Source: a virus (Duplodnaviria; Caudoviricetes). Taken from it: a stretch of DNA of 64,000 nt. The notes under the pieces were generated by a model. It was given only the letters and a program-made list of their open reading frames with translations. It was not told the DNA's origin and ran no database searches. The position numbers and the translations under genes were made by a program. Where the stretch lies: positions 27,113 through 91,112 of IMG/VR virus record IMGVR_UViG_3300031853_000013; one strand, written 5' to 3'. This document shows positions 11-63,363 of the stretch, one piece after another (position 1 is the first letter of the stretch; each line of letters starts with the position of its first letter).

Positions 11-35
11 ATTATAGGAGTTGAAAAAGATGCGA
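11..35 (-). promoter_or_regulatory. phage promoter motif copy 1 (drives a gene left of the window)
   Basis: minus strand TCGCA-TCTTTTT-CA-ACTCC-TATAAT-AG. Confidence 0.75.
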
Positions 36-41
36 GTATAG

Positions 42-380
42 TTATTTCCACGGTAGATCTTTATCATCAGGTGGTCCAAGATAAGTCTTGACAATCGCCT
101 TCTTAACACTCTTGAGATACGCTACTGTATCACACGTATTCTCAGTAACTTTCATATTGGTAAGAAAGAAATCAAGACTTTCAATACGATCAGTTACCTC
201 GTCGATCATATCGAGGATTCGGTTTACCACCTCAGGATCGTCGAGCCAAAATCCTTGCTGGTAAGTTTCCTCATCAATCGGTATAAATTCTGAAAAATTA
301 TTACAGCAATTACAAGGAAAATCTTTCCCTAGCATTTGATTATACTTGCAAATACATTCGTTACACGTAACTTTAGCCAT
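42..380 (-). CDS. small Cys-rich (CxxC...CxxC) protein, paralog of 1196..1399
   Basis: start MAKVTC after GAGG SD; two CxxC pairs and WxxDP motif. Confidence 0.7.
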   Translation of the reverse strand: MAKVTCNECICKYNQMLGKDFPCNCCNNFSEFIPIDEETYQQGFWLDDPEVVNRILDMIDEVTDRIESLDFFLTNMKVTENTCDTVAYLKSVKKAIVKTYLGPPDDKDLPWK

Positions 381-391
381 AGTTATACCTC

Positions 392-1090
392 TCATGCATA
401 AGCAATATTCTTTGCTTTGTGCTTCCAGTTGTAAGCGCACTGAGTCGTTACTCCAAACATCTCTACCATCTTAGCATTGCCGAGCTTATCATACATGTTC
501 AGAAACGTAATAGCCTCCTGCTTGTTTCTAAACAGCGATTCACGTGTCTTAGCTTTACGATTCTGCAGTCTATATATGAGCTTAGCTTCGGCATCTTCAG
601 GAATCACTTTAGGCTCGACTTTACATGAGCTGGCACTCTTCTCGACGATCTCATTGTCGTTGTTGGTGATTTCTTTCTTTTCCATAGTCTCTCCTTTAAC
701 TTCTTCCGCCGTGTCATTACTGACGAAGCCAAAATATCTTTTTGTTTCCTGCATAATAACCTCGATAGATTCAGGCGAGAACGTATAATAATACTTCGCA
801 AAGAACTTAACATCCTTGGTCTGAATCTGACTGAGAATGATACGGGAAGTAATATCTCCTTTAACAAACACGATATCATGATCAGTGTACTCAGACTTAT
901 TAGCATTTGTTGTAAGCGGTGCACAAGTGATATGTCCACCGTAATGCTTAATAATTACGTACGGTCTGGTTCCATTGATTACCGTGGAGCCTTGATTTCT
1001 CAGTGCACTAGTAATTTCCTGCGGCTCCTCAACCAGCCATACCTGACCAGTAGCGAATGTAGATGTCCCAAGCTTCTTTTCAATACTCAT
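392..1090 (-). CDS. PemK/MazF-like domain protein with C-terminal HTH-like segment
   Basis: GQVWLV...GTRPYVII...CAPLTT...IILSQIQT matches the PemK/MazF pattern; C-terminal MVEMFGVTTQCAYNWK is HTH-like. Confidence 0.6.
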   Translation of the reverse strand: MSIEKKLGTSTFATGQVWLVEEPQEITSALRNQGSTVINGTRPYVIIKHYGGHITCAPLTTNANKSEYTDHDIVFVKGDITSRIILSQIQTKDVKFFAKYYYTFSPESIEVIMQETKRYFGFVSNDTAEEVKGETMEKKEITNNDNEIVEKSASSCKVEPKVIPEDAEAKLIYRLQNRKAKTRESLFRNKQEAITFLNMYDKLGNAKMVEMFGVTTQCAYNWKHKAKNIAYA

Positions 1091-1195
1091 AATAATTTAC
1101 CTCCAAATATAAAATTATTGACAATAGTTAACAATGGTTTCCAATAAAGTAAACAAATTTGAATACTGCTCTTCAATAGGCAACTCGGTAATCGC

Positions 1196-1399
1196 CTAAA
1201 TATTGAGCAATAGTTCCGTTGCGTCTTCACACAAAAGTCTTAATTGGCGTCTAATTTTAGGATCCTCGTGCCAGCTAGATCTTAATATCAATTCTGTCCC
1301 GATAACTGAGGGTGTGAATTTACTGCCGTTAAGGCATTTTTCACATAACACTCCGCCAGTATAAGATTGATATAGACAATCATCGCATAATACCTTCAC
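1196..1399 (-). CDS. small Cys-rich protein, possibly truncated by TAG (frame stays open to TAA at 1115)
   Basis: GTG start after AGGAGG; CDDC/CEKC and WHEDP motif like 42..380. Confidence 0.6.
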   Translation of the reverse strand: MKVLCDDCLYQSYTGGVLCEKCLNGSKFTPSVIGTELILRSSWHEDPKIRRQLRLLCEDATELLLNI

Positions 1400-1416
1400 G
1401 GCTTTGTCCCTCCTTT

Positions 1417-1447
1417 AAAAAGAAAAGAGGAAGGGGCATTACGCCCC
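1417..1447 (-). terminator. intrinsic terminator overlapping the stop codon
   Basis: GGGGCG-TAA-TGCCCC hairpin followed by pyrimidine/U tract; same hairpin at 10718..10732. Confidence 0.65.
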
Positions 1448-1711
1448 CATCTCCTCTATTTCGACTTCTACAGCCGGTTCTTCAACAATAGTCTCTGTCG
1501 GAGTGTCCTCCATGAACTCCGGGTTTGCTGCTGTCATGTCCGTCGGGATCTCCGGTGCAGCGTCAGGTGTCGGATCACCATCGGTCTTCCGGTTCATCAA
1601 GGCCTTAATGCCAGCCTTTGCACCTTCGGATCCGAGAATGGAACCTACTCCTGCAGCCATCGCGGTGATAGCACCAACGGCGACCTTCATAGCAACTTCG
1701 TTCATCTTCAT
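1439..1711 (-). CDS. hypothetical protein (hydrophobic Gly/Ala N-terminus, acidic tail)
   Basis: ORF with AGGAGG SD downstream of promoter copy 2. Confidence 0.75.
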   Translation of the reverse strand: MKMNEVAMKVAVGAITAMAAGVGSILGSEGAKAGIKALMNRKTDGDPTPDAAPEIPTDMTAANPEFMEDTPTETIVEEPAVEVEIEEMGA

Positions 1712-4208: not shown

Positions 4209-5000
4209 TTACTCCTTGACCAAATCGTGAGGTGGCACGTTTGTGATGAACCAAGTATCTCCAAGCTTGTCGTTATCATAAGCCATATTGTAAGGTGCAA
4301 TATCGTCAACACTATCCCATCCGTAGTTGTCAGAAACCTTAAAATACTTGCTTCCGTTACCATGGATCATATGGTATACATCGTTCACGGTCAAACATCT
4401 TTTAGTTTCAAACGTCTTAATAGCTTCTCCGGCAATATGATAGGCGAGTGAACGCGATGGAATCTCAAGATACTGGCTGAAAGCTGTCGGTAAGATTCGA
4501 TCATTATCGCTTCGGAACTGTCTGAGATCTCTGGCTAACGGCAGACCCTCGATGTAATACTTATCTTCATCTGTTCGCACAACCAAATTACAAATATCCA
4601 TGTAATTATACCCGTAGTCAATCATACGATACGGAATGTTCGACATGATTGTTCCATCTTGATCATACTCGATAGCGTCGGACAGAATGTCATAAATATC
4701 AAGCTCGGTTACTACTCCAGAATCTTCAGCGACTTCAGTGATACGCTGCTGTACATACTTGGCCATCAGATACGAATTGAAATGAACGTCTGACAGGATA
4801 GATACCACCTTGATTTTACTGGTGTCGACCTCGGCAACGTTGCTAACATACTCTACGTCAGACGGTTTTGGTTCAGACTTAAACACGTTCTTAACCGATT
4901 CCTTGACATCGGTGATCTTCGATTTATCAACGTATTTGTCATATACGTGATAAGCGGCTACACCAAGGCCCAGTACTGCCAGTCCAATAAGTTTACTCAT
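4209..5000 (-). CDS. membrane-anchored protein with two copies of the 'VxDxY...(Y/W)GW...P' domain
   Basis: N-terminal TM; domain shared with 6845..7375, 7622..8158, 8239..8907. Confidence 0.7.
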   Translation of the reverse strand: MSKLIGLAVLGLGVAAYHVYDKYVDKSKITDVKESVKNVFKSEPKPSDVEYVSNVAEVDTSKIKVVSILSDVHFNSYLMAKYVQQRITEVAEDSGVVTELDIYDILSDAIEYDQDGTIMSNIPYRMIDYGYNYMDICNLVVRTDEDKYYIEGLPLARDLRQFRSDNDRILPTAFSQYLEIPSRSLAYHIAGEAIKTFETKRCLTVNDVYHMIHGNGSKYFKVSDNYGWDSVDDIAPYNMAYDNDKLGDTWFITNVPPHDLVKE

Positions 5001-5625
5001 AATTATTCTCCTTTAAATCAATATATTTCTGAACATCGAGGTTATAAAGTTTCAGAGCCTCGATTAATTCATCTAAGCATTTCGGTCCGAAACACCTAAT
5101 TTCCATGAGATGTTTGGGATCAGTCTCGTAAAGCTGCTTTAAATCCTCAATACCATCGCGAGTTAAGCAATGATACAGTCGAACAGATAGATTCATTTCT
5201 TTGACCGAAGGATTCTCAAATGCACTTTGCTTATGCTCAATGCAATCGTGGTAGCCGTTCAAGTAGCCCTCCCGATAAGCTACATTCGCACGTTCTCCGG
5301 ACCTTACTTCAAAGAACATCATAGGCCCTTTAAATACAATAGCACTATTACTAGGTCGTCTAAAAAATCTAGCCACATGTGATAAAATCTGCTGTACTCT
5401 AGCACTGCTGCGGTCGATTGCATCACCAACTTCTTTCTGGGTTTTGTTATCGCGGTAGTAAAGATTAATTACATCTTGACTACGGTCGTCCATCGTTGAC
5501 ATGACGTAATAAAACCCTGCCAAAGTGTTGACGCTCGTGTGTTCTTCAGCCTCCTTTTCAGTCCAAGCATACACAACCGACAAGAAATTATACGGATAAG
5601 GATAATCCGGTTTCTTAGTTCTCAT
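4993..5625 (-). CDS. sigma70 region-4 HTH fused to an RNA polymerase alpha-CTD-like domain
   Basis: KTQKEVGDAIDRSSARVQQI (region 4) and EMNLSVRLYHCL...IRCFGPKCLDEL (alpha-CTD HhH). Confidence 0.8.
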   Translation of the reverse strand: MRTKKPDYPYPYNFLSVVYAWTEKEAEEHTSVNTLAGFYYVMSTMDDRSQDVINLYYRDNKTQKEVGDAIDRSSARVQQILSHVARFFRRPSNSAIVFKGPMMFFEVRSGERANVAYREGYLNGYHDCIEHKQSAFENPSVKEMNLSVRLYHCLTRDGIEDLKQLYETDPKHLMEIRCFGPKCLDELIEALKLYNLDVQKYIDLKENNYE

Positions 5626-6216: not shown

Positions 6217-6251
6217 AGTTATTTCCTCCTTTGAAAATATAAAAAGAAAAA

Positions 6252-6366
6252 ATGGAAACACAGCTTTGCGGTCTTCGAACCCGCGTCTCCTTCACAACAT
6301 AGTCGTAAAGGCGCATTACCTTTATGCTATTTTGTTACCCGTAATCTCGGGTCGCTGTGTCTCCAT
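6252..6366 (-). ncRNA. tRNA-like RNA 1 (no CCA, 13-bp closing stem, extended anticodon-type arm)
   Basis: D-like GCAT-AAAGGTA-ATGC, 10-bp arm CCTTTACGAC-TAT-GTTGTGAAGG, T-arm GCGG-GTTCGAAGA-CCGC, closing ATGGAGACACAGC/GCTGTGTTTCCAT then U-tract; directly after promoter copy 3. Confidence 0.7.
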
Positions 6367-6571
6367 CATTATAGGACTTGCATAGTTTGCGAATCACTAT
6401 TTGTACGGACAGCTCTTCAAGCTCAGCTACTCTACGTGCTTGTTCGATATTATAGTGCCCCACGATATCATAGACAGTCGTTTCGTTGACCGCCTTTAAC
6501 ATAGAGTCGTTAAGATTCTCCGCGACATCTCGAATATCATTCGAATTCAGTATCTTCATCGTCGCTATCAT
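6335..6571 (-). CDS. hypothetical protein (3' end overlaps promoter 3 and the ncRNA 5' end)
   Basis: ORF with GAGGAG SD. Confidence 0.5.
   Translation of the reverse strand: MIATMKILNSNDIRDVAENLNDSMLKAVNETTVYDIVGHYNIEQARRVAELEELSVQIVIRKLCKSYNDGDTATRDYG
6368..6392 (-). promoter_or_regulatory. phage promoter motif copy 3
   Basis: TCGCA-AACTATG-CA-AGTCC-TATAAT-GA. Confidence 0.75.
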
Positions 6572-8921: not shown

Positions 8922-9785
8922 TTAATTAATAGTATAGTTGTTACTTTCATAGCAGCATCTCGGCTTTGTATCAAGTATGATCTCAAGACACGGGATCTCA
9001 GTATCAGGAATCTTCGCAGCCGAGAAGTGATACTTAATAAGTTCGCCATTTGCTTCCCAGTAGAAGATGTTACCAACGTCTGTTTCACTAACACCTCTAC
9101 CATGATTTGCGATATTAACTGCCACGGTATTAAAGTCGTACAGCAAATCGTTGAGCATTACCTCTTGGCAGTTATTAATAGCGTGATTAGCTCGGATGAA
9201 GCACTCCTTGACATCTTCAATTCTAGCACTAAAGATCTGTCCTGTCATTGGCGCCATAAATATCGTGTAACTGGTATTGTCTGAAGCAAAGCGCTTAACT
9301 TCATCATCTACCGGAGTGTTCTCAAGCTTCTTTCTTGTTACGGCAGCTTCGATCTCACCAGCCTTCTTCTCTCCGAACTTCTCAATAGTTTTCTTCTGAT
9401 ACTCCTTTAATGACATATCGGCAATCGTGTACGCTGCTGAAAGAGCTGTCTGACGCTTGTCGCTGATGTAGTCCGAGCCGATAACTGCTGCACTTGAGAG
9501 AATAAAAGATACAGCTGTCGGCCAGTATGCGGGCGTCACTGCCTTGAATGTCTCGAATGGTGTAAGCTTAATGCTACTACGTTCTTCCTGTGGAATACCT
9601 TCTTCGTCGGCCTTTAGTGCCTTAGCCTCATCGATCAGAAGATCAGCCTTAGGCTTAGCATTTACTGCAAATATCACAGTAGTGAAGAATCCTGCAATAC
9701 CTGCTGCCGTAAGAAGTTTTGGGGAGTGCTTAACCAGCGTCTTCACTCCACCATGTGTGATCTCAGTGATCTTCGTTGTGTCCAT
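8922..9785 (-). CDS. DUF6353-like membrane-associated phage protein
   Basis: KHSPKLLTAAGIAG N-terminus and ALSAAY...YQKKTIEKFGE segment. Confidence 0.65.
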   Translation of the reverse strand: MDTTKITEITHGGVKTLVKHSPKLLTAAGIAGFFTTVIFAVNAKPKADLLIDEAKALKADEEGIPQEERSSIKLTPFETFKAVTPAYWPTAVSFILSSAAVIGSDYISDKRQTALSAAYTIADMSLKEYQKKTIEKFGEKKAGEIEAAVTRKKLENTPVDDEVKRFASDNTSYTIFMAPMTGQIFSARIEDVKECFIRANHAINNCQEVMLNDLLYDFNTVAVNIANHGRGVSETDVGNIFYWEANGELIKYHFSAAKIPDTEIPCLEIILDTKPRCCYESNNYTIN

Positions 9786-9820
9786 AATAATGGCCCTCCT
9801 TAAAATATAAAAAATTAAAA

Positions 9821-9907
9821 GAGATGATAATGCCCCTGGGAATCGAACCCAGTCTATATAGCCATCTACTATATCGCGTCCCGTCCGCGAATCATTATCA
9901 TCACTCC
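9821..9907 (-). ncRNA. tRNA-like RNA 2 (no CCA, long closing stem)
   Basis: TCGCG-GACGGGA-CGCGA, TATAG-TAGATGG-CTATA, canonical T-arm CTGGG-TTCGATT-CCCAG, closing GATGATAATG/CATTATCATC then U-tract; directly after promoter copy 4. Confidence 0.75.
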
Positions 9908-9932
9908 ATTATGGAAGTTGCTTAGTTTGCGA
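9908..9932 (-). promoter_or_regulatory. phage promoter motif copy 4
   Basis: TCGCA-AACTAAG-CA-ACTTC-CATAAT-GG. Confidence 0.75.
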
Positions 9933-11005: not shown

Positions 11006-11046
11006 AACAAAATTCCTCCTAAATATAAATTTGGACATTACATCCT

Positions 11047-11071
11047 ATTATAGACCCTGCGCCGTTTGCGA
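11047..11071 (-). promoter_or_regulatory. phage promoter motif copy 5
   Basis: TCGCA-AACGGCG-CA-GGGTC-TATAAT-AG. Confidence 0.75.
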
Positions 11072-11521: not shown

Positions 11522-11746
11522 TCAATCGTTCTTCCACGGCTGATACTCGTCATACATCTTCTGATACTTGGCTTCCAGCGTTGTCAAATACTTAGTCATT
11601 TTCTCAAGCGCGGACATCTCCTTAGCCGTAAGTGTGCTTTCGACATACTTGCTGTCGAGCATCTTACGAGCTCCATTAGCCGCGTCATGTGAATAATACT
11701 TAGCATCCACAAGTGCTTTCTTCTCCAGTTCATTTAACTTTTTCAT
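11522..11746 (-). CDS. cassette ORF, hypothetical
   Basis: AGGAGG SD, promoter 6 upstream. Confidence 0.75.
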   Translation of the reverse strand: MKKLNELEKKALVDAKYYSHDAANGARKMLDSKYVESTLTAKEMSALEKMTKYLTTLEAKYQKMYDEYQPWKND

Positions 11747-11790
11747 AACAAATTCCTCCTATAGAATATAAAGTTTGAACTTATCGTTCT

Positions 11791-11815
11791 ATTATGAGGG
11801 CTGTCTATTTTGCGA
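11791..11815 (-). promoter_or_regulatory. phage promoter motif copy 6
   Basis: TCGCA-AAATAGA-CA-GCCCT-CATAAT-AG. Confidence 0.75.
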
Positions 11816-11816
11816 G

Positions 11817-11844
11817 AAAAAGAGAGCGACATTGAGCCGCCCTC
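11817..11844 (-). terminator. intrinsic terminator abutting promoter 6
   Basis: GAGGGCGGC-TCAAT-GTCGCTCTC-TTTTT. Confidence 0.75.
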
Positions 11845-11851: not shown

Positions 11852-12301
11852 TTACCAGGTATCCCTGAGGCAGACACTGTCCTTGTAAATTTCCGTTCCA
11901 ATATAGGCCTTATCAAACGGTTCTTCACCGTTGATACCTGCCATAATATTGACAACGATATCTTTATCAGCACAAATGTCTCTGATTTCCTCAAGCTTAC
12001 CCATAATGGCAGCCTCGGTCTGATCAATATCGATCTCCTTTCTCAGCATTTCTGCAATTTCCTGATCGTCTACATTCAGCGTGTTCGGTCCAGCTACCTT
12101 TTCGCCGCCTGTGATAACTCCGCCAAGATTACCGAACTCATCGTCGACCGAAGAGCACGCCTTCTTAAAGAATACAAATCCGCCAACAGCTACTGCTGCG
12201 CCGATTGCTCCTTTAACAATCGTACCCTTGTGGTCGTGCCAGAATGATTCGGTTTTAACCTTAACCTCATTCACACGCTCCTTAAAAGTCTTCTTTTCCA
12301 T
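11852..12301 (-). CDS. cassette ORF, single-TM protein; paralog of 12877..13329
   Basis: KKTFKER...GAIGAAVAVGGFVFFKKA. Confidence 0.75.
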   Translation of the reverse strand: MEKKTFKERVNEVKVKTESFWHDHKGTIVKGAIGAAVAVGGFVFFKKACSSVDDEFGNLGGVITGGEKVAGPNTLNVDDQEIAEMLRKEIDIDQTEAAIMGKLEEIRDICADKDIVVNIMAGINGEEPFDKAYIGTEIYKDSVCLRDTW

Positions 12302-12351
12302 AATAATTACCTCCTATAAATATGAATTTCAGGATAGCTTTAATGCTACCT

Positions 12352-12376
12352 ATAAAGAGACCTGTCTAGATTGCGA
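12352..12376 (-). promoter_or_regulatory. phage promoter motif copy 7
   Basis: TCGCA-ATCTAGA-CA-GGTCT-CTTTAT-AG. Confidence 0.7.
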
Positions 12377-12423: not shown

Positions 12424-12801
12424 TTACTTCAGGATCCGCATATCCCGCAAGATGTCCTCTGTGTATTCGCCAGCACGCTTACGCTGAACAAGTTCGGTTC
12501 TCTCAGCATTCGTCATGTTCCGCTTGAGCTCCCAATGAAGCCCGGTGGCTGGATCATAGTAGCATTTATCCATGCGATCTTCGTGTCTGTCTTGTGCACT
12601 ACCGCGTACGAGTTTAATTAATTTTACCGTACCAGTAGCCGCTCCAATAACGACAGGAAGAGCTCGAACAATCTCGCCACTATGATCAGCCGTCCATCTG
12701 AGAGCCTCATTAGCTCTATTGCTTACCGCGGTTTTGATCTCTGAGATTTTGTCTCGAATCTTATCCTTTGTACTGCGTGTGTCGTTTACAATAATTTCCA
12801 T
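12424..12801 (-). CDS. cassette ORF, hypothetical
   Basis: AAAGGAGG SD; YYDPATGLHWELKR motif. Confidence 0.75.
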   Translation of the reverse strand: MEIIVNDTRSTKDKIRDKISEIKTAVSNRANEALRWTADHSGEIVRALPVVIGAATGTVKLIKLVRGSAQDRHEDRMDKCYYDPATGLHWELKRNMTNAERTELVQRKRAGEYTEDILRDMRILK

Positions 12802-12819
12802 TTACGACACCTCCTTTCT

Positions 12820-12844
12820 ATTATAGAACCTGTCTAATTTACGA
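12820..12844 (-). promoter_or_regulatory. phage promoter motif copy 8 (TCGTA variant)
   Basis: TCGTA-AATTAGA-CA-GGTTC-TATAAT-AG. Confidence 0.7.
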
Positions 12845-13329: not shown

Positions 13330-13362
13330 AAATATCATTCCTTTCCGAACCGTTTTTGGTTC

Positions 13363-13387
13363 ATTAAGTGAGTTGTCTAAATTGCGA
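13363..13387 (-). promoter_or_regulatory. phage promoter motif copy 9
   Basis: TCGCA-ATTTAGA-CA-ACTCA-CTTAAT-GA. Confidence 0.7.
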
Positions 13388-13423
13388 AAAAAAAAAACAA
13401 GGAGGAAGCTGTTACACTTCCTC
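13388..13423 (-). terminator. 'EEV-stop' terminator, copy 1 of 3 (others 14817..14848, 15669..15700)
   Basis: GAGGAAG-TGTAACAG-CTTCCTC-CTTGTTTTT. Confidence 0.75.
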
Positions 13424-13636
13424 GTTCTCGTAAAACCGCTGTTGTCTGGCAGCCTCTTCAAGTGCCTGTGATAAGTGGTCATACTCTTTGTAATCATGTC
13501 TCTCTGTGCACGGTCCTTCTTCTCGAATCGTGAAGAGATGATACTCAACAAAGTAGCCTTCCTGCCTATCAATCTTAACCTTGAAGAATCTACCATCGAT
13601 CTTAACCTCGTATTTTACAATATTCGTAATAGTCAT
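13412..13636 (-). CDS. cassette ORF, hypothetical (ends EEV)
   Basis: AAAGGAGG SD, promoter 10. Confidence 0.75.
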   Translation of the reverse strand: MTITNIVKYEVKIDGRFFKVKIDRQEGYFVEYHLFTIREEGPCTERHDYKEYDHLSQALEEAARQQRFYENEEV

Positions 13637-13683
13637 AATTTTCCTCCTTTAATTTCGGGGATCAGCCCTTTGCTTCTCCCTCT

Positions 13684-13708
13684 ATTAAGAGGATTGAAAA
13701 TCATGCGA
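13684..13708 (-). promoter_or_regulatory. phage promoter motif copy 10 (identical to copies 14 and 16)
   Basis: TCGCA-TGATTTT-CA-ATCCT-CTTAAT-AG. Confidence 0.75.
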
Positions 13709-13793: not shown

Positions 13794-13871
13794 TTACTTG
13801 CTATCCTTATTTCTCATGATGATTGAAACCAGGATAAGACATACTGCCACTATCAGGAGCATTTCACTCAT
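13794..13871 (-). CDS. 25-aa hydrophobic peptide (not in ORF track)
   Basis: MSEMLLIVAVCLILVSIIMRNKDSK; AGGAGG SD, ATGA overlap. Confidence 0.55.
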   Translation of the reverse strand: MSEMLLIVAVCLILVSIIMRNKDSK

Positions 13872-14017
13872 TTATTACCATCCTCCTTTCTGCGCTTCTC
13901 AGGCTTAGCTATAACTGCAATGATCAGTGAGATTACATCACGTATAATCGACACTGAGCCTACAATTATCAATGCTAGAAGCACTGCAAGCACAATCAGT
14001 ATTGTTTGAATAATCAT
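13868..14017 (-). CDS. 49-aa hydrophobic peptide (not in ORF track)
   Basis: MIIQTILIVLAVLLALIIVGSVSIIRDVISLIIAVIAKPEKRRKEDGNK; AAAGGAG SD, promoter 11. Confidence 0.6.
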   Translation of the reverse strand: MIIQTILIVLAVLLALIIVGSVSIIRDVISLIIAVIAKPEKRRKEDGNK

Positions 14018-14054
14018 AAGCTTACTCTCCTTTCTAGTAGTCAATAAGACTCCT

Positions 14055-14079
14055 ATAAAGAGAGCTGTCTAGATTGCGA
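14055..14079 (-). promoter_or_regulatory. phage promoter motif copy 11
   Basis: TCGCA-ATCTAGA-CA-GCTCT-CTTTAT-AG. Confidence 0.7.
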
Positions 14080-14113: not shown

Positions 14114-14419
14114 TCAATCGACATACGTAAATCTAGTTGTCAGAATAAAGCCGGTCTTCAAGTCGTAATCATACTCAGTCTGCGTACAATTGCTCGGAGA
14201 TACGACAATAAACGTCTGAACTTCTTCAACGCTGTCGGGATCTTCCCAGTGGCCCTCGCCATACTTATTCGATATTTCCTCCTTCATGTCTATAATGCCT
14301 TGCTCATACCATTTAAGTTCTCTTGTCTCGGTGATTTGTTCTGCGTGACTAGTTGTGTTTCCACATCCTGTACATATAATAGCACATATCACCATAATCA
14401 TAACAAAAGTCTTTTTCAT
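14114..14419 (-). CDS. cassette ORF, putative lipoprotein
   Basis: MKK + hydrophobic stretch + lipobox-like CTGC. Confidence 0.65.
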   Translation of the reverse strand: MKKTFVMIMVICAIICTGCGNTTSHAEQITETRELKWYEQGIIDMKEEISNKYGEGHWEDPDSVEEVQTFIVVSPSNCTQTEYDYDLKTGFILTTRFTYVD

Positions 14420-14460
14420 AATGATCGCTCCTTTAATTATAGTAAGGCGTAATACCTTCT

Positions 14461-14485
14461 ATTAAGAGGATTGAACCATTTGCGA
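14461..14485 (-). promoter_or_regulatory. phage promoter motif copy 12
   Basis: TCGCA-AATGGTT-CA-ATCCT-CTTAAT-AG. Confidence 0.75.
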
Positions 14486-14527: not shown

Positions 14528-14749
14528 TCAGTCCTCCTTTTTCGGCTCACCTGCCGGATGCATGATACCGATCTCCCTCTCTTCCTTAGCGTAGAAAAGC
14601 TCAAATTCGTTGATGTACTCCCTCACGTCTCTATCACTGAGCCACACACTTGTGTCAGTGCTGAAACGCTTTTTGTACGCCTCCTTTACAGCCTCTTCAA
14701 ACGCCTTGTCGAGAGCGTTCAGTCTCATTTCTTTTACATGCATATCCAT
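14528..14749 (-). CDS. cassette ORF, hypothetical
   Basis: GGAGG SD, promoter 13, terminator hairpin at ~14492..14520. Confidence 0.75.
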   Translation of the reverse strand: MDMHVKEMRLNALDKAFEEAVKEAYKKRFSTDTSVWLSDRDVREYINEFELFYAKEEREIGIMHPAGEPKKED

Positions 14750-14791
14750 TTAGCATACCTCCAATAAAATATAATTTGGACTTGGTGTCCT

Positions 14792-14816: not shown

Positions 14817-14836
14817 GAAAAACAAGGAGGAAGCTG

Positions 14837-51798: not shown

Positions 51799-52137
51799 TC
51801 AATACTTATGTCCCGATTGTAGCCAACGGTCGAGGAAATTAAGACCCGATTCTATAAGATTAGCCGCGTTAGCAATATTAAACTTACGAGCATATTTCTT
51901 ATATACTTTTCTAGATTGTGCGATGGACTTAGCCATTTCATTATGTGCCATCTGCTGAGCACGTCGGGTCTTAATGTCTCCTTCTTTTTTGGAGGTCTTA
52001 ATGTTACGTCGAAGCTTCTTAGAACTAGATTGCTGTTCTTTTAGTGTCTTTTTCCATTTGTCTTTATGAGTCTTATAATACTCAATGTTGTATTCTTTCT
52101 TAGCAGACCCTTTGAATGCGTGCTCGAGAAAATCCAT
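51799..52137 (-). CDS. basic 'HSWGK'-related protein
   Basis: MDFLEHA...KEYNIEYYKTHKDKW. Confidence 0.75.
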   Translation of the reverse strand: MDFLEHAFKGSAKKEYNIEYYKTHKDKWKKTLKEQQSSSKKLRRNIKTSKKEGDIKTRRAQQMAHNEMAKSIAQSRKVYKKYARKFNIANAANLIESGLNFLDRWLQSGHKY

Positions 52138-54784: not shown

Positions 54785-55603
54785 TTAACCGTCCATTCTT
54801 ACGCCACGTTCAATAATAGGTTTAAGATTATTTAAATCATACTCAACACTAAGAATGTGCGATCCGTGTTCAGGATGGCTAAAATCGATATCCAATGTAT
54901 CCCAATCAGTAATATATGCGCCGGTGGCTTTCAACGCCTTTCTATATTCTTGGAGGGTCATCTTGTCTTTGACATCGTCTACGTTATCATTATATAAGTC
55001 ATCGGCTATGAACTTAGAAGTCTGTTTATATATAGTGTCACTGTTAGATTCCAATTTCTTAATCTTCGAATCCAACGTTTTAATGTGCTCATTTATATAT
55101 CCAGACTTATCACCGGGATCAACAACGGTGTATACTTTTATGTTATCCGGCCCGAGTTTAGATGACTTTTCAGCATAAATATCGCCGCCGAAATCGCCGG
55201 AGTCATCGACTTTCCAACCAGACTTCTTAAACGCATCTGATACCGTATTGTATTCGTCAGTGGCTGACTCTGGGCGTTTGATAGTTTTAGTTTTTGTTGA
55301 CACGCTAGAATTATGTGTCTTATTCTCCTTAGCAAGTCTACCGAGGTCAATAGCCGCTCCGACTAATCCCAACTTTCTGGAGTATTTAGTAACGTCGTAA
55401 TAGGTGCCATCTCCGCGTTCCCTTAAACGCTTGGCACCAGATTTATTCAGAGTTCCGTCAGAATTAAGATACCTCTTTTTACCGGCCTCTGTAAGAGATC
55501 CATCTTTATTCTGATACCGCCTTACGCCCCATTTCTGACCAAGAATGCCATGATGACAAAGAGTGTCCTGTTCGATAAGCGCTTCATACAAAAAATCTTG
55601 CAT
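54785..55603 (-). CDS. protein with an N-terminal 'HHGILGQKWGVRRYQNKDGSLT' module
   Basis: start MQDFLY coupled (TAATG) to upstream stop. Confidence 0.8.
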   Translation of the reverse strand: MQDFLYEALIEQDTLCHHGILGQKWGVRRYQNKDGSLTEAGKKRYLNSDGTLNKSGAKRLRERGDGTYYDVTKYSRKLGLVGAAIDLGRLAKENKTHNSSVSTKTKTIKRPESATDEYNTVSDAFKKSGWKVDDSGDFGGDIYAEKSSKLGPDNIKVYTVVDPGDKSGYINEHIKTLDSKIKKLESNSDTIYKQTSKFIADDLYNDNVDDVKDKMTLQEYRKALKATGAYITDWDTLDIDFSHPEHGSHILSVEYDLNNLKPIIERGVRMDG

Positions 55604-55980
55604 TAATCTTCCACCTCCAGTTTGTTCATTCCAGGGTCGACCTCGACATTGAGACGCCATTCTATTTCCTTAGCCTCTTCTTTCAATGTTGACATATGTG
55701 CAGAACTCTGAGGCGGATCGAATACCAATCGGACTTTGATGTAAATGTAGGTCTTAACTTGCGAAAGTCTCTCTGGTGGATAGTTATCGCCGAGAAAATC
55801 ACGCCAGGTTTGTGTATCGTCTTGCAGCATGAAGCCCGGAGTGCCGACACCGAGCTGCGTGAGATTAGCAAAATATGTATTGGCGTGCATCATGAGATCC
55901 ATATCGAAGTGAGTTATCTCACCAGGAGACGTGGACCCGCCAACTACTTTTCGAAGTTCATTAAGAATAGACGAATCCAT
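55603..55980 (-). CDS. head-tail adaptor-like protein
   Basis: SIL...LTQLGVG...VKTYIYIKVRLVFDPP...EWRL. Confidence 0.65.
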   Translation of the reverse strand: MDSSILNELRKVVGGSTSPGEITHFDMDLMMHANTYFANLTQLGVGTPGFMLQDDTQTWRDFLGDNYPPERLSQVKTYIYIKVRLVFDPPQSSAHMSTLKEEAKEIEWRLNVEVDPGMNKLEVED

Positions 55981-56652: not shown

Positions 56653-56994
56653 TTACTCCTCGTATTCGTCTTCATCATTATACGGATTCTGTCCAGAATA
56701 TAATCGCATAGCGTCGAGAGCTTTTGCATACATTTCCTCGACACGCTTAGATGACTCGATAGACTCCGTTTGGGCATCCAGCTTTTTCATTTGCTTCTCC
56801 ATGAGCTCTTTTTCGAGTCGTTCTTTTGTAGTGCCAAGTTTCAGATAATGCACGATTAGCGAATTACTAGCAGACCCATCCATCAATTTCTCCTCGGCTA
56901 GATCCATTGCTAATGCGATTAACTGGTTTTCTCTTGCTTCCGGAGTTCTTGCTGGAGGTCGTTTCTTTCTGTTTGTTTCGTTGGGCTTTGCCAC
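56653..56994 (-). CDS. probable terminase small subunit
   Basis: first gene of the packaging operon; helical PARTPEARENQLIALA. Confidence 0.55.
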   Translation of the reverse strand: MAKPNETNRKKRPPARTPEARENQLIALAMDLAEEKLMDGSASNSLIVHYLKLGTTKERLEKELMEKQMKKLDAQTESIESSKRVEEMYAKALDAMRLYSGQNPYNDEDEYEE

Positions 56995-57042
56995 GATTAC
57001 TTCCTCCTTTTCTAATCTTTCTAATTTCTTTTTCTTTGTTTA

Positions 57043-57160
57043 GGTATTCTTTCTAAAGTGTTTGGGAGTCTTTTTCTCGAGACGAAAGGAGCTACATCTG
57101 GAGGGACGAAGACATGCTGGGACTGATGGAGGTGCCCCCAAACACTTTAGAAAGAATACC
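57043..57160. repeat. 24-bp perfect inverted repeat
   Basis: GGTATTCTTTCTAAAGTGTTTGGG at 57043..57066 and its reverse complement at 57137..57160. Confidence 0.9.
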
Positions 57161-57351
57161 CGCAAAACTACCGGAGGAAAATATAAAAAATATCCCTCCG
57201 GAGAATTTTAGGGGAGAGCGCCGATGCAGAGGGGGTGGGTTGTTTTATATACCCCCTCCCGGGTGCCTTTTATATTTTGGCACGTGGTCCCGGCACTCAA
57301 AAATTTTTTGAATCGAAATCTCAAAACCAAAACAAATAATTTTTCAGAAAA

Positions 57352-57609
57352 TTATTGTTCAAGTTTGTAAGTTTTTGTAATCTTTTTGTACAAACCATTT
57401 AAATTCCATTTAGCAAGTTTGTCACAAACTCTTTCGATTTCTTTGTTGTAATTGTAACTGCTTTCTTCATTCGAAGTGTTCGCAACTCGATCAATCAAAC
57501 CACAAGTGTTGTAACCCATAGAGGTATCGTAGGAGTACCACCTATCAAAGTCATCAAAGAAATCGTAAGGGTTGTCAATGGTTGTCAGCCATGTTTCGGT
57601 GACTTCCAT
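57352..57609 (-). CDS. small conserved protein coupled to the RNA polymerase gene
   Basis: WLTTIDNPYDFFDDFDRWY; starts 3 nt after the polymerase stop. Confidence 0.75.
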   Translation of the reverse strand: MEVTETWLTTIDNPYDFFDDFDRWYSYDTSMGYNTCGLIDRVANTSNEESSYNYNKEIERVCDKLAKWNLNGLYKKITKTYKLEQ

Positions 57610-57611: not shown

Positions 57612-60329
57612 TTAAGCACCTTCTTTCTTAACAGCACTAATAGTTGATGTAGAAACATCGAACTTCTCGGCAATGTCGCTAGTTGTCCATCCAGCGTCAA
57701 GCATTGCCATAATTCGTGCTTTGTTAGCAGTTGTTAATCCATTTGACGTTCTAGGCATAGCCCGTTCTTTAAGGGCGTCGTCGTCACAGTTTTTGAATAT
57801 AGCTTCCTGCTTGGTAGCGGATATAGCTCCAGCTTGGATTGCTTCCCATTCACGGTCTGACAGTACAATAGCCTGTCTCTTAGCACCTACGACCTCTCTA
57901 GCGTCTCGGAGAGCATTGTTTTTTACCTTCTTCAGGGCCTCCTTATCGTCTTTCAGCTCAGGGTTATCCTGCTTCTTAGTACGAACCGTCTGATTGGCAA
58001 TAAGCTGGGCCTTACGTTCGAGGGGGGCATTACGTCTAGCATCGTCAAGCTTCTTATCGAGGGATGCTATCTCGTCCTTATATGCCAGGGTGGTAGCCCC
58101 TCTGTTCCACTGGGCGGGTTCCACGCTAAGTGATGCCTTACGTGCACGATTACCAAGGGCCTTCATATAGTTGGCATAGTCGGCATATACCTCTTCCATC
58201 TCGTGTCCAGAGGACAGACTATAGGCATCCTTGGTCTCGTACATTTTAGTACTCTCAACTGGCTTATAGGGTTTGGTGCTAGTTCTGACTTCACCGTTCT
58301 TAAGTACCTTAGTCTTGGTGACAGTCTCAGGATGCTCAGTCCATTTGATTTCGCCAGTTTCCTCGTCAATCCATTGTCCTTTTCTTTCCCGACGATAGAC
58401 ATACTCAGGAGACTTGGCTTTTGACAGAAGTGTAGCAGCGCCACCACGAGCAGATCCCTGGTATTTAGTCTTAAGTTCAGCAATACCGTTATCGATATAC
58501 GACTGTTCGTAGTCTAACCGGTGTTTGTTAGCATCAATTACGACCATCGAATGTCTTGTAGCTCGAGCCAACTCGTTATCATCGGCTCCCTGAAGCGTCA
58601 TATCGGTAATCAGGTTTGTGATCATACCCATCTGTTTACCAGTATCAGCCTTTGTCATGACTCTCATGCCTTCATGGTATCCATATGTGGCCTTAGGATC
58701 AAAGTTCTTCAGTCCTTCGAGCGGGGCAGAGGTCTTTATCTTAACGTTCTTAGTGGGAATAACGAGAGCTGTATCACCGTCAAAGTCCGCACCAGACAAC
58801 TGTTCAGCAGTCTTGCTGTTGATACCGACTGCGTCAATAGCATTAGCGCCCATAACATTAGCGCCCTCTTTGTTCTTGTTATTAACCCTCAGTCTGGGCA
58901 TCTCAAACCGTCCGCCATGAGGGAATCTAACAAGTACAACTTCTTCGCCGTCTTTGTAATTGGGTGCATAAATCTCATTGTCTTTGAGCGTAGTAAGAGG
59001 CAGTAACACATGTGAAGCCTGTCTAGGCAAAGCGGCGGCCTTAAGATCGACTGCATCAGCATCACATCCATCAGCGAACTCAAGAAGCATCTTCTTCTTA
59101 AGAACGGGATTAGTGAGATTCATGATTGTCTCGAACTCTTCATCAGACTCGGCCTTTGCCAGATTGAGCTGTTTTTTAGCAAGCTCGATAGGCTGCTTAG
59201 ACAGAACCTGTGACGCAAGCGTCTTAGCCCATTCGCCCCATTTACCTTCTTCACGAACGATGTTAAGAGCACCTTGAACTTTTTCGCCTTTTTCATTCTT
59301 GTAAGAATTCTGGCGTTCCAAATATGCACCAAACGGGTTGTCCTTGTCGCCGGACTGAAGTTTTAGTACAGTATTATCTTTTTCGCCCATCATGGGAGTG
59401 CCGCGATGCTTATTTGTGTTGAATCGGATGTCCACGCCGTCAGGCAGATCGTCAGCATACACAGCCATGCCTTTAATATAGTGAGTTCCACCAACAGCGA
59501 TACGAACCTGTGCGTACCTTGAATTACCCATATCAAGATCAGCAACACCACGTCTAAGCTCCATAACGCCATCTTTAGCAAGTCCGCCGTCTTCAGCGTA
59601 AACTACACTGACTCGTTTAGGATCTACCTGAACAGGAGGCTTGATAGTACGCCGTTCCTTAGGATCTCCATCAACCATATACTCAACAGGAAGCGCAATC
59701 TTGTCCATATTGTCATATACTTCCTTTTGAGTGACGCCGGCCTTTACTAATACATCCATATTAGTCTTCTGGAGAGGATTCGAAATCTGAGGAATGTGAA
59801 GCTGGACTTTGTCATAGTCTCCGCTATCAACAAGCATCTTAACGGCACTCTTCATGGTATTCTCACTAATACCCATAAAGCGATTAACCTCAGCACCGAC
59901 ATCGACATAGTCCTTCTTGTCAACGGAGTCCTTTAAAATATCGGCGGTGGCATTAATACGGTTAGCCTTGACTTCAGCGCCATCCTTAAGAAGAGTACGA
60001 ACATAAGATTCATTACGATTCATGCGCTTACCGATAGCGACATTGGACATACCCTTTTCCTTTAATTTCTGGGCCATTGCAATATCGGCACGCTTGGATT
60101 CATTAGCGGCGATGCTAAGTCTCTTACGAAACTCTGTGGTGCTAATACCTTCCATACGAGCGATTTCGGTATCACCTTTGCCCTGGGCACGCCAGTAGTC
60201 GACCCTTGAAACGAAGTTCTTACTTCTCTGAGGCTTCTTACCAGATCCCCACGGATAGCGGCCTGAATGTCTGGGTGTGCCATAATGCATTAAAAAGTCT
60301 TCCTTGAATTCGTCAGACATCGGTATCAC
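57612..60329 (-). CDS. putative single-chain two-barrel (DPBB) DNA-directed RNA polymerase
   Basis: GADFDGD (DFDGD codons at 58773..58787) preceded by VRFP; HTH-like segments at both termini. Confidence 0.75.
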   Translation of the reverse strand: MIPMSDEFKEDFLMHYGTPRHSGRYPWGSGKKPQRSKNFVSRVDYWRAQGKGDTEIARMEGISTTEFRKRLSIAANESKRADIAMAQKLKEKGMSNVAIGKRMNRNESYVRTLLKDGAEVKANRINATADILKDSVDKKDYVDVGAEVNRFMGISENTMKSAVKMLVDSGDYDKVQLHIPQISNPLQKTNMDVLVKAGVTQKEVYDNMDKIALPVEYMVDGDPKERRTIKPPVQVDPKRVSVVYAEDGGLAKDGVMELRRGVADLDMGNSRYAQVRIAVGGTHYIKGMAVYADDLPDGVDIRFNTNKHRGTPMMGEKDNTVLKLQSGDKDNPFGAYLERQNSYKNEKGEKVQGALNIVREEGKWGEWAKTLASQVLSKQPIELAKKQLNLAKAESDEEFETIMNLTNPVLKKKMLLEFADGCDADAVDLKAAALPRQASHVLLPLTTLKDNEIYAPNYKDGEEVVLVRFPHGGRFEMPRLRVNNKNKEGANVMGANAIDAVGINSKTAEQLSGADFDGDTALVIPTKNVKIKTSAPLEGLKNFDPKATYGYHEGMRVMTKADTGKQMGMITNLITDMTLQGADDNELARATRHSMVVIDANKHRLDYEQSYIDNGIAELKTKYQGSARGGAATLLSKAKSPEYVYRRERKGQWIDEETGEIKWTEHPETVTKTKVLKNGEVRTSTKPYKPVESTKMYETKDAYSLSSGHEMEEVYADYANYMKALGNRARKASLSVEPAQWNRGATTLAYKDEIASLDKKLDDARRNAPLERKAQLIANQTVRTKKQDNPELKDDKEALKKVKNNALRDAREVVGAKRQAIVLSDREWEAIQAGAISATKQEAIFKNCDDDALKERAMPRTSNGLTTANKARIMAMLDAGWTTSDIAEKFDVSTSTISAVKKEGA

Positions 60330-61206: not shown

Positions 61207-61381
61207 CTATCATTAAGGGAGCTGTAAACTAGACGTCAACATATTGCCCCTGTAATGTTAGACCTTGCAAAATATAAAAGGCATACGCCATGGTTCTTGT
61301 TCTTCTAAAAACGCAAAGCCGTGGCGTAAGTTGTCTATTTCTATCATTAAGGGAGCTGTAAACTAGACGTCAACATATTGC
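61207..61381 (-). repeat. 41-bp direct repeat x2 containing promoter-like elements
   Basis: identical copies at 61207..61247 and 61341..61381; minus strand TTGACG-N16-CTTAAT. Confidence 0.85.
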
Positions 61382-61383
61382 AC

Positions 61384-61641
61384 TTATCTATATCCGCGAC
61401 CTTTCCTTTGGCGACAGTGTAGAGGGTTCTTAGGCACTGGGGTACCATCTACCCATTCAAACGTATAGCCTTTATGTGAATGCCGTTCTCCACACATGCA
61501 TTTAAATATAGCACTGCGATCGCCATTTATTCGGTTAGCAACAGCCTCAAATGTTGGATAGACTTCGTCTAGTTCGATTATCCTAACCATAGGATGATTC
61601 GGCGGTCTCCCAACTCGATCATATTTCTTTTTTCGCGGCAT
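61384..61641 (-). CDS. small NUMOD1-like DNA-binding protein
   Basis: VRIIELDEVYPT...SAIFKC...HKGYTFEW. Confidence 0.65.
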   Translation of the reverse strand: MPRKKKYDRVGRPPNHPMVRIIELDEVYPTFEAVANRINGDRSAIFKCMCGERHSHKGYTFEWVDGTPVPKNPLHCRQRKGRGYR

Positions 61642-61877
61642 TAGTTGGTCTCCTCAGAGCAGGCTCCTATCAAAAGCTCTAAGCTCATTCGGTATGTCTC
61701 GAGCATATCAGTTGAGTAATATGCTCTAACAGTACCGTCAGTTTCCTGTCTGGTGATACAATCCTCCTTGCTATCCATAAGCTTAGTGATAAGATCATGG
61801 CATTCCTTGAATGCGTCGGCTCTACCAGCCATATACATTTTTCCTGTATGCATAAATATAAAACCTCCTATTACCAT
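61641..61877 (-). CDS. hypothetical protein
   Basis: coupled to flanking genes. Confidence 0.55.
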   Translation of the reverse strand: MVIGGFIFMHTGKMYMAGRADAFKECHDLITKLMDSKEDCITRQETDGTVRAYYSTDMLETYRMSLELLIGACSEETN

Positions 61878-63130
61878 TTGAGAAAAGCTTTCTCATTAAA
61901 AGTCTTCTTACGATGTATTGCCATTTCGATGGCTCGGTCTATTGACGAGTTGGTCCGCATATGATAATAATGCAAAACCTTGAATGGTGTGTTCGCACGA
62001 TCAATCCGTCCTCTAGCTTGTTCCATGGTCTTGTAGGAATAAGTTTGAGAATAGAAGATCATAGTGTCTGTTGTGATACAATTCCAGCCTTCAGCACCAG
62101 CATTGTATTGTACTAAGTACGCCCAGTGATCTTCATTTGGTACTGGCTCATGCTTGTGACCGTTCCATTCAGCATATAAAAGTCCTATATCGTCGCACGC
62201 TTTTCTAAGCAACTCCAGCTCAACGTTAAAATTGTAGAATACTACGGCCTTAGCGTGTTCTCGCATAAGACTTTTAAACTTCATGATCTTGTCAGGATCT
62301 GTATTGACTAATTTACGTAGTGCTATGCACACCTCATTAGCATCCTTGAACGGTTCGTTGGTATCGGGATTCCATCGGTCTTTCATGATGATCTTGTATT
62401 TGTCTTTATCATACAAACTAACAACGGTTTCCTTTAAACATACCGTATCGCGTTTAAAGTCCATCTCAACCAGGATCTGTCGTCTCAGTCGTTCTAGCCG
62501 TTGCTCTTCTACATACCGTTCGATCTTGGGGTATTTAGAAAACCTTGAATACACGGCGTGTCGACTAACAAACTCGGTTTTGTTTTTATAGAAGCCGTTA
62601 GCTATGAACACTGGTATGTAATCAGACCAGTTGTCGCCAGGTGTAGCAGATAACAAAATCCATTTATTATTCTTTGTGATTTTTATGAACGACTTGGTCC
62701 ACATACCATAGCCTACCACGCGCTGTTCATCAAATATAAAAAACGCGTTATCGACATTCACATACTTCTTGATGTTATTCCAAGAGTCCACATGAATCTC
62801 GACATTGTCAAACTTATACCCAAACAAACCAAAAGGTATAGCTTCTTGCTCCCAGTCACACGTATCCCGTTTTCGAGCAGTGGTGATAATGTACAGTTTA
62901 ACAGGCTCCTTTAATTCTCGCATGTCAACATTGTACTCGTATACGTATTGACCATTTTTAACGTTAACATCTATACGCCCTAGTCCAACCACATTCTTAG
63001 TGAAATATAAAAGCGCTGTACGTGACTTACCAGAGCCAACACCGCCAACTAAGATACAGCCATTATGCATTTTATCAACAGCCAAATACTGATGTCGATA
63101 CAACGGTACTTTGAATTCTCCCACTTCCAT
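61871..63130 (-). CDS. SF2 (SNF2-like) helicase
   Basis: GVGSGKS, IFDEQ, LSATPG, AEGWN, QARGRIDR. Confidence 0.9.
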   Translation of the reverse strand: MEVGEFKVPLYRHQYLAVDKMHNGCILVGGVGSGKSRTALLYFTKNVVGLGRIDVNVKNGQYVYEYNVDMRELKEPVKLYIITTARKRDTCDWEQEAIPFGLFGYKFDNVEIHVDSWNNIKKYVNVDNAFFIFDEQRVVGYGMWTKSFIKITKNNKWILLSATPGDNWSDYIPVFIANGFYKNKTEFVSRHAVYSRFSKYPKIERYVEEQRLERLRRQILVEMDFKRDTVCLKETVVSLYDKDKYKIIMKDRWNPDTNEPFKDANEVCIALRKLVNTDPDKIMKFKSLMREHAKAVVFYNFNVELELLRKACDDIGLLYAEWNGHKHEPVPNEDHWAYLVQYNAGAEGWNCITTDTMIFYSQTYSYKTMEQARGRIDRANTPFKVLHYYHMRTNSSIDRAIEMAIHRKKTFNEKAFLKW

Positions 63131-63217
63131 ACTATTTCACCTCCTATCAAAGCAAAAAAGAAAGAGAGCTGACCAGTTATTATGTCAGCCCTGTTTCTTT
63201 TTGATTCGGCATAATGC

Positions 63218-63319
63218 TCAATCTTTCATAAGCATTATGATCAAGACTATAGGCACTAATGTTTCAATTATTTCTTCTACTATCTTTAGTGCCTTTATCT
63301 TGTATTCTCTTTCGTTCAT
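63218..63319 (-). CDS. 33-aa peptide with hydrophobic C-terminus (not in ORF track)
   Basis: MNEREYKIKALKIVEEIIETLVPIVLIIMLMKD; GAGGAGG SD right after promoter 17; terminator at ~63154..63192. Confidence 0.6.
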   Translation of the reverse strand: MNEREYKIKALKIVEEIIETLVPIVLIIMLMKD

Positions 63320-63338
63320 GAGCCTATCACCTCCTCTC

Positions 63339-63363
63339 ATAAAGGGAGATGACCAGTTTGCGA
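63339..63363 (-). promoter_or_regulatory. phage promoter motif copy 17
   Basis: TCGCA-AACTGGT-CA-TCTCC-CTTTAT-GA. Confidence 0.7.

Follow-up and report, generated by a model that had tools for sequence, protein, structure and literature searches.

In a 64,000-nucleotide stretch of a Caudoviricetes phage genome (hereafter the window; bases 27113-91112 of the 91,112-bp IMG/VR viral record IMGVR_UViG_3300031853_000013), we find a repeated 26-base signal, TCGYA-N7-CA-N5-YWTWAT-R, whose copies are probably the promoters of a 905-amino-acid (aa) two-barrel RNA polymerase encoded by the same phage, with transcription starting at the purine that follows the hexamer. The two ends of the record overlap by ~190 bp and the genome is therefore complete, being circularly closed in the assembly; its called genes lie on the minus strand throughout. 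An earlier note on this DNA, made from its letters, had already listed 17 copies of the signal and proposed that they are promoters of non-sigma-70 geometry read by a phage enzyme.

An exact search of the window returned 17 matches, all on the minus strand, when shuffled sequence gave 0.01. These are the 17 copies of the earlier list, in which the starts are 1 base higher and the trailing purine is not counted. The entire 91-kb genome holds 31 strict copies, every one on the gene strand, and the central CA (positions 13-14), said earlier to be invariant, is found in 31/31. A weight-matrix scan was sharply bimodal, with scores of 25.7 bits or more for the 31 copies and of 12.2 bits for the best site after them, and it also placed no copy in the structural region at 16-57 kb of the window, as had been described. 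All copies have a purine at position 26 (23 with A, 8 with G), 24/31 have G at position 27, and purines follow at positions 28-29 in the alignment. From centre to centre, the three conserved blocks are spaced by ~10.5 and ~9 bp, which would set them on one face of the helix, a layout suited to a protein presenting several helix-turn-helix (HTH) modules.

When the search was relaxed to require no more than the hexamer, CA at positions 13-14 and CG at 2-3, it added two identical variant copies (ACGTCTAGTTTACAGCTCCCTTAATG, ACGTC-N7-CA-N5-CTTAAT-G; 61345-61370 and 61211-61236, minus strand) that are absent from the earlier list. Both are upstream of an endonuclease-exonuclease-polymerase cluster, the second ~66 nt before the endonuclease gene that opens it. 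In these variants ACGTC replaces TCGCA, TTGACG precedes the element, and the whole is embedded in a ~135-bp tandem repeat; at the same location, the promoter also deviates at position 1 in several relatives (ACGCT in Hankly, CCGCA in ReqiPepy6). A motif-like site inside a late gene (52074-52099) has no upstream block, is at chance level and was discarded.

The surroundings of the copies make it close to certain that they are promoters. When flanks are aligned, most copies stand a few bases past a GC-rich hairpin followed by a T-run, a strong Shine-Dalgarno sequence (SD) and ATG typically follow 15-50 nt downstream, and two copies head structured, transfer RNA (tRNA)-like RNAs that end in U-tracts. 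Terminator-like sites on the gene strand number 23 in the accessory region, with two more just past copy 17, and zero in the 47 kb that run from the helicase gene through the polymerase gene and a cos-like gap to the last of the structural genes. The layout thus reads, from sequence, as a promoter and short leader repeated as single-gene cassettes. With a terminator before each next promoter, the accessory and replication region would be a string of such cassettes, each transcript stopping at the intrinsic terminator just upstream of the following promoter.

A role other than promoter is very improbable, whether as the operator of a repressor, as a site for recombination or for shuffling of cassettes, or as a signal for replication or packaging. 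Such a role could be suggested by three cassette heads (at 13708, 15124 and 15972) that are identical over more than 45 nt, recalling recombination, and by the position of the 905-aa protein gene within the replication module. It is opposed by the single orientation of the copies with the genes, their place between a terminator and an SD or structured RNA, their absence from coding sequence and from the structural block, and the retention of the AT-rich hexamer and purine-rich stretch in all lineages. The three heads belong to copies 10, 14 and 16 and comprise the 26-bp motif and a leader of ~20 nt (GAGGGAGAAGCAAAGGGCT); a hairpin, GAGGAAGTGTAACAGCTTCCTC, is likewise common to three terminators, and whole cassettes seem to have undergone duplication or shuffling.

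The motif and the polymerase travel together. By tblastn, homologues of the 905-aa protein (37-50% identity) are encoded in 250 GenBank phages, with Arthrobacter, Gordonia, Streptomyces, Rhodococcus, Curtobacterium, Microbacterium, Lactococcus and Faecalibacterium as hosts; a metagenome protein search scored at least 8000 homologues, a scan of IMG/VR with the single protein gave four loci, and 20 kb of the window, searched as nucleotides against GenBank phages, gave 0 matches. The gene order is conserved: primase/polymerase, single-stranded DNA-binding protein (SSB)-like annealing protein, helicase, endonuclease, exonuclease, two-barrel polymerase, a small protein that is also conserved, genome end. 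In every relative with readable flanks around the homologue, CA at 13-14, the hexamer at 20-25 and the purine at 26 recur on the gene strand and in the same places. The element reads TCGYA-N7-CA-N5-TATAAT-AG in metagenome relatives (66-72% identity), TCGCGtaAAtTACA-N5-TATAAT-R in Arthrobacter Hankly, TCGCA-N7-CAC-N4-TATAAT-GAGACCCCTA in Gordonia Rickmore and Rhodococcus ReqiPepy6, TCGCA-N7-CA-N5-TATAGT-GAGACCCCTAC in Streptomyces Scap1, ACGCG-N7-CA-N5-CTTTAT-G in Faecalibacterium FP_oengus, nnRCA-N7-CA-N5-TATAGT-AGAAAGAAGG in Lactococcus 1706 and TTTTA-N7-CA-TACCC-TATAAT-G in Lactococcus P092. The geometry is therefore kept in 10 phage lineages with Actinobacteria and Firmicutes hosts and GC contents from 34% to 61%, and such constancy across two host phyla ties the signal to the phage lineage, not to one host's machinery.

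The association also held in the reverse direction. When IMG/VR contigs of at least 30 kb were chosen solely by one exact TCGCA-N7-CA-N5-TATAATAG match, 32/40 of the records encoded the polymerase, and 20/22 among those at least 90% complete. That the motif tracks a ~900-aa polymerase across two bacterial phyla supports the proposal of a phage enzyme as its reader.

The candidate reader (57612-60329, minus strand) is matched end to end by PHROG 4291 (1127 bits). It has a weak Pfam RdRP match over residues 506-604 and HTH matches at its C-terminus, and its GADFDGD catalytic loop carries three aspartates (D515, D517 and D519) that do not vary across 34 homologues. The AlphaFold model made from the homologue alignment reached a mean predicted local distance difference test score (pLDDT) of 78. 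Searched against the PDB with Foldseek, this model retrieved QDE-1 first (E = 5e-9), then P74-26 gp62 and phage gp64 RNA polymerase (PDB 8f72), and further down plant RDR2, P23-45 gp96 and bacterial beta' subunits; the matches to the phage RNA polymerases 8f5m and 8f72 have E <= 5e-5. A sequence-profile search of solved structures found HTH-type matches only, the kinship with polymerases being visible by fold alone. On this ranking, the modelled 905-aa protein is a single-chain two-barrel polymerase of the YonO/QDE-1-like kind, and the only polymerase-like gene of the genome has this fold.

The comparison with T7 in the earlier note stands in one part and falls in another. As in T7, T3 and SP6, a specific element of ~23-26 bp occurs in tens of copies on the gene strand with bimodal scores, is contiguous with the predicted +1, is AT-rich before a purine start and leads into a purine-rich initial transcript. 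This is by analogy a likeness in working, not membership: the enzyme is two-barrel and YonO/QDE-1-like, not T7-family, and the element consists of three blocks about one helical turn apart instead of one continuous recognition sequence. A search for the T7-family polymerase domain (Pfam RNA_pol, PF00940) gave 0 matches in the 91-kb genome, a negative that is unvalidated as the control genomes also lack the family.

The polymerase contains three HTH modules (residues ~50-68, 93-114 and 868-895), which are candidates for reading the upstream blocks in cis. An invariant N-terminal motif, L.HYG..R.SGRYPWGSG, precedes them and is disordered in the model. The recognition helix of the second module (HTH-2) reads ES.VR in 13/14 aligned lineages, all with an upstream block of CG/CA type; in Lactococcus P092 the helix is PGSVTN and the upstream block is the AT-rich TTTTA. 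This covariation is suggestive of a reading role for the HTH modules, with HTH-2 the best candidate for the CGC-containing block. Four IMG/VR relatives (here labelled G011, G012, G019 and G032) carry separate 192-aa proteins that resemble polymerase residues 10-126, that is the N-terminal motif with HTH-1 and HTH-2; judged by their sequences, these are possible stand-alone promoter-binding regulators or competitors.

Three independent sequence features argue for a +1 at motif position 26, within 2 nt, as the earlier note had proposed from some of the same elements. The first is the position of the SDs, which lie 0-4 nt past the hexamer in five copies (15, 8, 17 and two outside the window). In line with the earlier note, copy 15 reads TATAAT-GAGGAGG, the SD beginning at the first base past the box, and in copies 8 and 17 the SDs (AAGGAGG and GAGGAGG) begin 3-4 nt past it; an SD at the very first base past the hexamer is also found in metagenome relatives (L007/L008, L009 and L011). 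A start 7 nt downstream would remove these box-adjacent SDs, which argues for a start beside the box. The second feature is a set of small hairpins of -3 kcal/mol or better whose first base lies no more than 2 nt from position 26; they occur in 13/31 copies vs 11.5% of random positions (binomial p = 1.7e-5), and when the assumed start is shifted by +6 to +8, terminal hairpins remain in 0-1/31 copies. The third is provided by the two tRNA-like non-coding RNAs (ncRNAs), whose closing stems begin at motif positions 26 and 27.

Both ncRNAs are on the minus strand. The first (6245-6367, 123 nt, minimum free energy -50.7 kcal/mol, z = -7.3) has a 14-bp closing stem from motif position 26 and ends in a U-tract; the second (9815-9907, 93 nt, z = -4.0) closes from position 27 and has a GGGTTCGATTCCC T-arm. 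They share long closing stems and T-arm-like GGGTTCGA loops. Scans of the window with ARAGORN and Rfam returned neither a tRNA nor a known RNA family, and both ncRNAs went uncalled. In relatives (ReqiPepy6 and apparently P092), genuine tRNA genes lie ~8 nt after the same promoter.

The main alternative keeps the host holoenzyme and adds a phage factor. The copies would be activator-dependent host sigma-A promoters, with the hexamer as -10 element, a start ~7 nt downstream and a phage protein at TCGCA/CA that replaces the -35 contact in the manner of MotA/AsiA. We consider this unlikely. It draws on the TATAAT-like hexamer, on the position of TCGCA at about -31 to -27 in sigma-type numbering, comparable to that of the T4 MotA box, and on two candidate binders: the HTH modules of the 905-aa protein itself, and a 210-aa fusion (4993-5625, minus strand) that joins a genuine sigma-70 region 4 (Sigma70_r4, 32 bits) to an RNA polymerase alpha C-terminal domain (RNA_pol_A_CTD, 55 bits), with no sigma region 2. 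No homologue of the fusion, which is specific to this lineage, turned up in the motif-sharing GenBank relatives, and the fusion was thus ruled out as the motif's conserved reader; it may interfere with or redirect the host polymerase.

The copies themselves also fit poorly with sigma-A. They have no -35 hexamer at 16-18 bp and no TG at positions 17-18, and a sigma-70 scan of the window called 0/17 copies through their own hexamer. In the sigma-70 -10 element, the A at -11 is one of the two bases that are best conserved and most critical to function. In the only register that keeps the invariant T at -7, the base equivalent to -11 is T in 16/31 copies, and so it is in FP_oengus, where the hexamer is CTTTAT in 10/10 copies. 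These results bear out the non-sigma-70 geometry. A start at +7 would, moreover, truncate SDs, 5' hairpins and ncRNA stems. In the Actinobacteria phages Scap1, Rickmore and ReqiPepy6 a conserved GAGACCCCTA follows the box, leaving only pyrimidines, C or T, where a sigma-type start would fall. A sigma-70 reading through an upstream TTGAC in Arthrobacter Hankly was rejected, its spacer being 20 nt. Sigma-70-type sites occur at chance in the window (57 vs 49.5 and 37 vs 30.7 expected) and on the gene strand genome-wide (19 vs 17 at 10/12 matches or more; 1 vs 1.3 at 11 or more).

T4 middle promoters resemble these copies in that a phage-specific box further upstream takes the place of -35 beside a -10-like hexamer. 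They differ in that T4 requires sigma-70, an intact -10 with A at -11 and a start ~7 nt downstream, whereas here half of the copies lack that A and the start seems to lie against the box. The sigma4-alphaCTD fusion, as the candidate for a MotA-type partner conserved wherever the box occurs, is missing from the motif-bearing GenBank relatives. The virion polymerase of N4 offers another comparison: its early promoters carry a conserved DNA hairpin at the start site, and here the 26-bp element holds no inverted repeat; the hairpins near the motif sit in the transcribed region and vary in sequence between copies.

We regard as quite unlikely a third possibility, that host core RNA polymerase is redirected by a divergent phage sigma-like factor (compare T4 gp55 and AR9 gp226) that escapes profile searches and reads the hexamer with the upstream blocks. 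Phage sigma-like factors that recognise just a -10-like element are known, and many small open reading frames (ORFs) of this genome are unannotated, among which such a protein could lie. Against it, a profile search of the genome found no encoded Sigma70_r2 domain, and among genes seen in all relatives examined only the polymerase has DNA-binding domains. The start-site geometry argues against a sigma-type bubble, and under this idea the two-barrel enzyme, catalytic and strongly conserved, would have no template to act on.

We thus favour the 905-aa polymerase as reader of the motif. If +1 is position 26, TCGCA would span -25 to -21, CA -13/-12 and YWTWAT -6 to -1. The built-in HTH modules would read the upstream blocks, the AT-rich hexamer would be the melted region, and RNA would begin at the purine directly after it and continue into a purine-rich initial sequence.

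How the enzyme first reaches its promoters can be proposed from its gene's position. Almost all of the non-structural genes would depend on this promoter class, and the polymerase gene is itself downstream of such promoters, so the enzyme must come with the DNA or be bootstrapped. The homologue in Lactococcus phage 1706 (orf75) was annotated 'structural protein' by the depositors, a label echoed in the ReqiPepy6 record, and together with the lack of recognisable host-type promoters this suggests that the polymerase is probably brought in with the virion. Two late-region proteins (54785-55660 and 47863-49290, minus strand) have an N-terminal DUF7211 motif (HYG..G.KWG.RRYQN.DGSLT; 32 and 27 bits), the first half of which resembles the N-terminal motif of the polymerase (residues 10-30; 13 bits). 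In some relatives, ~200-aa proteins share polymerase residues 5-44 with ~50% identity. As a speculation from these likenesses, the N-terminal motif could be a shared virion-targeting or processing signal.

The structural genes would be reached by a different route. Copy 17 (63338-63363, minus strand) is the only strict copy upstream of the 47-kb block that runs from the helicase to the structural genes; the minus strand of 15677-63012 has no terminator-like site and no strict copy, and contains both variant copies. The block may be a single unit fed from copy 17 and the two variants, in which case the structural genes are reachable only after the genome ends join. A 40-aa ORF (63218-63340) and a terminator-like hairpin near 63163 stand between copy 17 and the helicase gene, and could gate entry to the block. 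A site for the junction can be proposed: after the gene for the 85-aa protein comes a 358-bp non-coding gap (56994-57352) with GC-rich runs (GGCACCCGGGAGGGGG... and CCCACCCCC), at the position where the physical genome ends in relatives and where ReqiPepy6 has an annotated 3' cos overhang. This gap is a probable cos region, and read-through from the helicase-upstream promoter would cross it once joined.

The 85-aa protein (57352-57609, minus strand) is encoded directly downstream of the polymerase in 10/10 relatives checked. It contains the motif TT.DNPY.PF..F..W..D...GY and has no Pfam match; it could be a polymerase accessory factor or a packaging protein.

Taken as a whole, these proposals describe a sigma-free, self-contained system, with three HTH readers in cis, a one-face three-block promoter, a start after the hexamer, an enzyme injected from the virion and a late switch dependent on cos joining, shared across the supergroup. 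This full scheme is tentative, and we would not count on all its parts holding together. Were it true, the phage would need no host-type promoter, the late genes would come on only once cos joining lets the helicase-upstream promoter read through, and the arrangement would be conserved across a siphovirus supergroup of Actinobacteria and Firmicutes.

Several points weigh against the polymerase as reader of the motif. Its co-occurrence with the motif could reflect the shared ancestry of the whole phage supergroup, and another conserved, unrecognised factor could read the element. The covariation of HTH-2 with the upstream block comes from one lineage change. The TATAAT-like hexamer in many lineages leaves room for some use of host sigma-A, most plausibly in the Actinobacteria phages, where the hexamer is always TATAAT or TATAGT. 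A polymerase gene behind the promoters it serves requires virion delivery or a host-driven bootstrap, both conjectural, and the 'structural protein' name of 1706 orf75 is an annotation label only. Finally, the characterised relative YonO has late genes as its targets, and the late genes of this phage lack the motif.

YonO, from the Bacillus prophage SPbeta, belongs to the same broad superfamily of single-chain two-barrel polymerases. Both proteins have a weak Pfam RdRP match over the DxDGD region, and the profile also matches in the B. subtilis control genome; BLAST with the 905-aa protein did not retrieve YonO. The 905-aa enzyme differs in its three fused HTH modules and in a motif that heads non-structural genes. 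YonO acts as a DNA-dependent RNA polymerase that transcribes a late operon from one mapped start, its promoter sequence having been left undefined (PMC5467207). The Lactococcus 1706 protein was listed in the YonO-like two-barrel family in 2010 (PMC2919709).

The polymerases of Thermus phage P23-45 are also single-chain two-barrel phage enzymes (structural neighbours PDB 8f72, 8f5m and 8h2m). The non-virion gp64 and the virion gp96, a fusion with the tape measure, have their own promoter motifs upstream of mapped starts, and HTH modules go unmentioned for them (bioRxiv 10.1101/2022.12.01.518664). Their GC-rich and AT-rich promoters are unrelated to ours in sequence, hosts and phage lineage differ, and identity in the fold alignments is 10-14%.

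Phage-specific promoters for phage polymerases are an already known kind, and the enzyme family has been flagged before. Koert et al. described the same protein family in the same supergroup, with DxDGD, N- and C-terminal HTHs and possible polymerase activity, and called the protein a signature of the supergroup; the word 'promoter' is never mentioned, and they propose neither a DNA motif nor a start-site geometry nor virion delivery (bioRxiv 10.1101/842583). Full-text literature searches found no description of the promoter, with Garneau et al. 2008 (1706) and Summer et al. 2011 (ReqiPepy6) outside their coverage. One candidate from these searches, the SD13 promoter of Streptomyces phiSASD1, belongs to an unrelated phage with ordinary sigma-70 promoters and was set aside.

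Members of the family have so far been labelled 'putative RNA polymerase' or mislabelled 'RNA-dependent RNA polymerase' or 'HTH DNA-binding protein'. With the present motif the YonO-like branch would gain its first promoter model, the founder YonO having had none in the 2017 paper that characterised it. Given a candidate promoter of 26 bp and a predicted +1, a single purified protein and one oligonucleotide would suffice to test the function directly. The motif would also account for the cassette layout of the accessory regions across the supergroup (Arthrobacter clusters AM and AU; Gordonia, Rhodococcus and Streptomyces phages; the Lactococcus 1706/P092 group; Faecalibacterium oengus) and help to annotate those genomes better. 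Should the enzyme indeed carry its specificity domains within itself, it would be a natural polymerase and 'sigma' in one chain and a candidate orthogonal expression module for Gram-positive bacteria.

The remaining copies, all on the minus strand, are distributed as follows. Copy 1 (TCGCATCTTTTTCAACTCCTATAATA, 10-35) precedes a gene that starts ~42 nt downstream, beyond the window, and copy 2 (1765-1790), with a 5' hairpin from position 27, comes before a 90-aa gene (1439-1711). Copies 3 (6367-6392) and 4 (9907-9932) head the first and second ncRNA, the latter followed by a DUF6353 gene (8922-9785). Copy 5 (11046-11071) is before an ORF ending at 10724; copy 6 (11790-11815) is right after a terminator hairpin (11822-11844) and before the gene at 11522-11746; copy 7 (12351-12376) precedes the gene at 11852-12301. 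Copy 8 (12819-12844), the sole one with TCGTA, follows a terminator and serves the gene at 12424-12801, copy 9 (13362-13387) is right after the terminator at 13402-13423, and copy 10 (13683-13708), with one of the identical heads, serves 13412-13636. Copy 11 (14054-14079) goes with the gene at 13868-14044, copy 12 (14460-14485), after a terminator, with 14114-14419, copy 13 (14791-14816), after the terminator at 14827-14848, with 14528-14749, and copy 14 (15099-15124) with 14837-15055. Copy 15 (15643-15668) follows the terminator at 15679-15700 and precedes the gene at 15254-15628, and copy 16 (15947-15972), before the gene at 15689-15898, heads the first cassette past the structural block.

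Two further proteins of the window are encoded on the minus strand. At the end of the structural block lies the gene for an 833-aa leucine-rich-repeat protein of BspA type (16017-18518), and in the accessory region a 232-aa protein (392-1090) shows weak MazF/PemK-like similarity.

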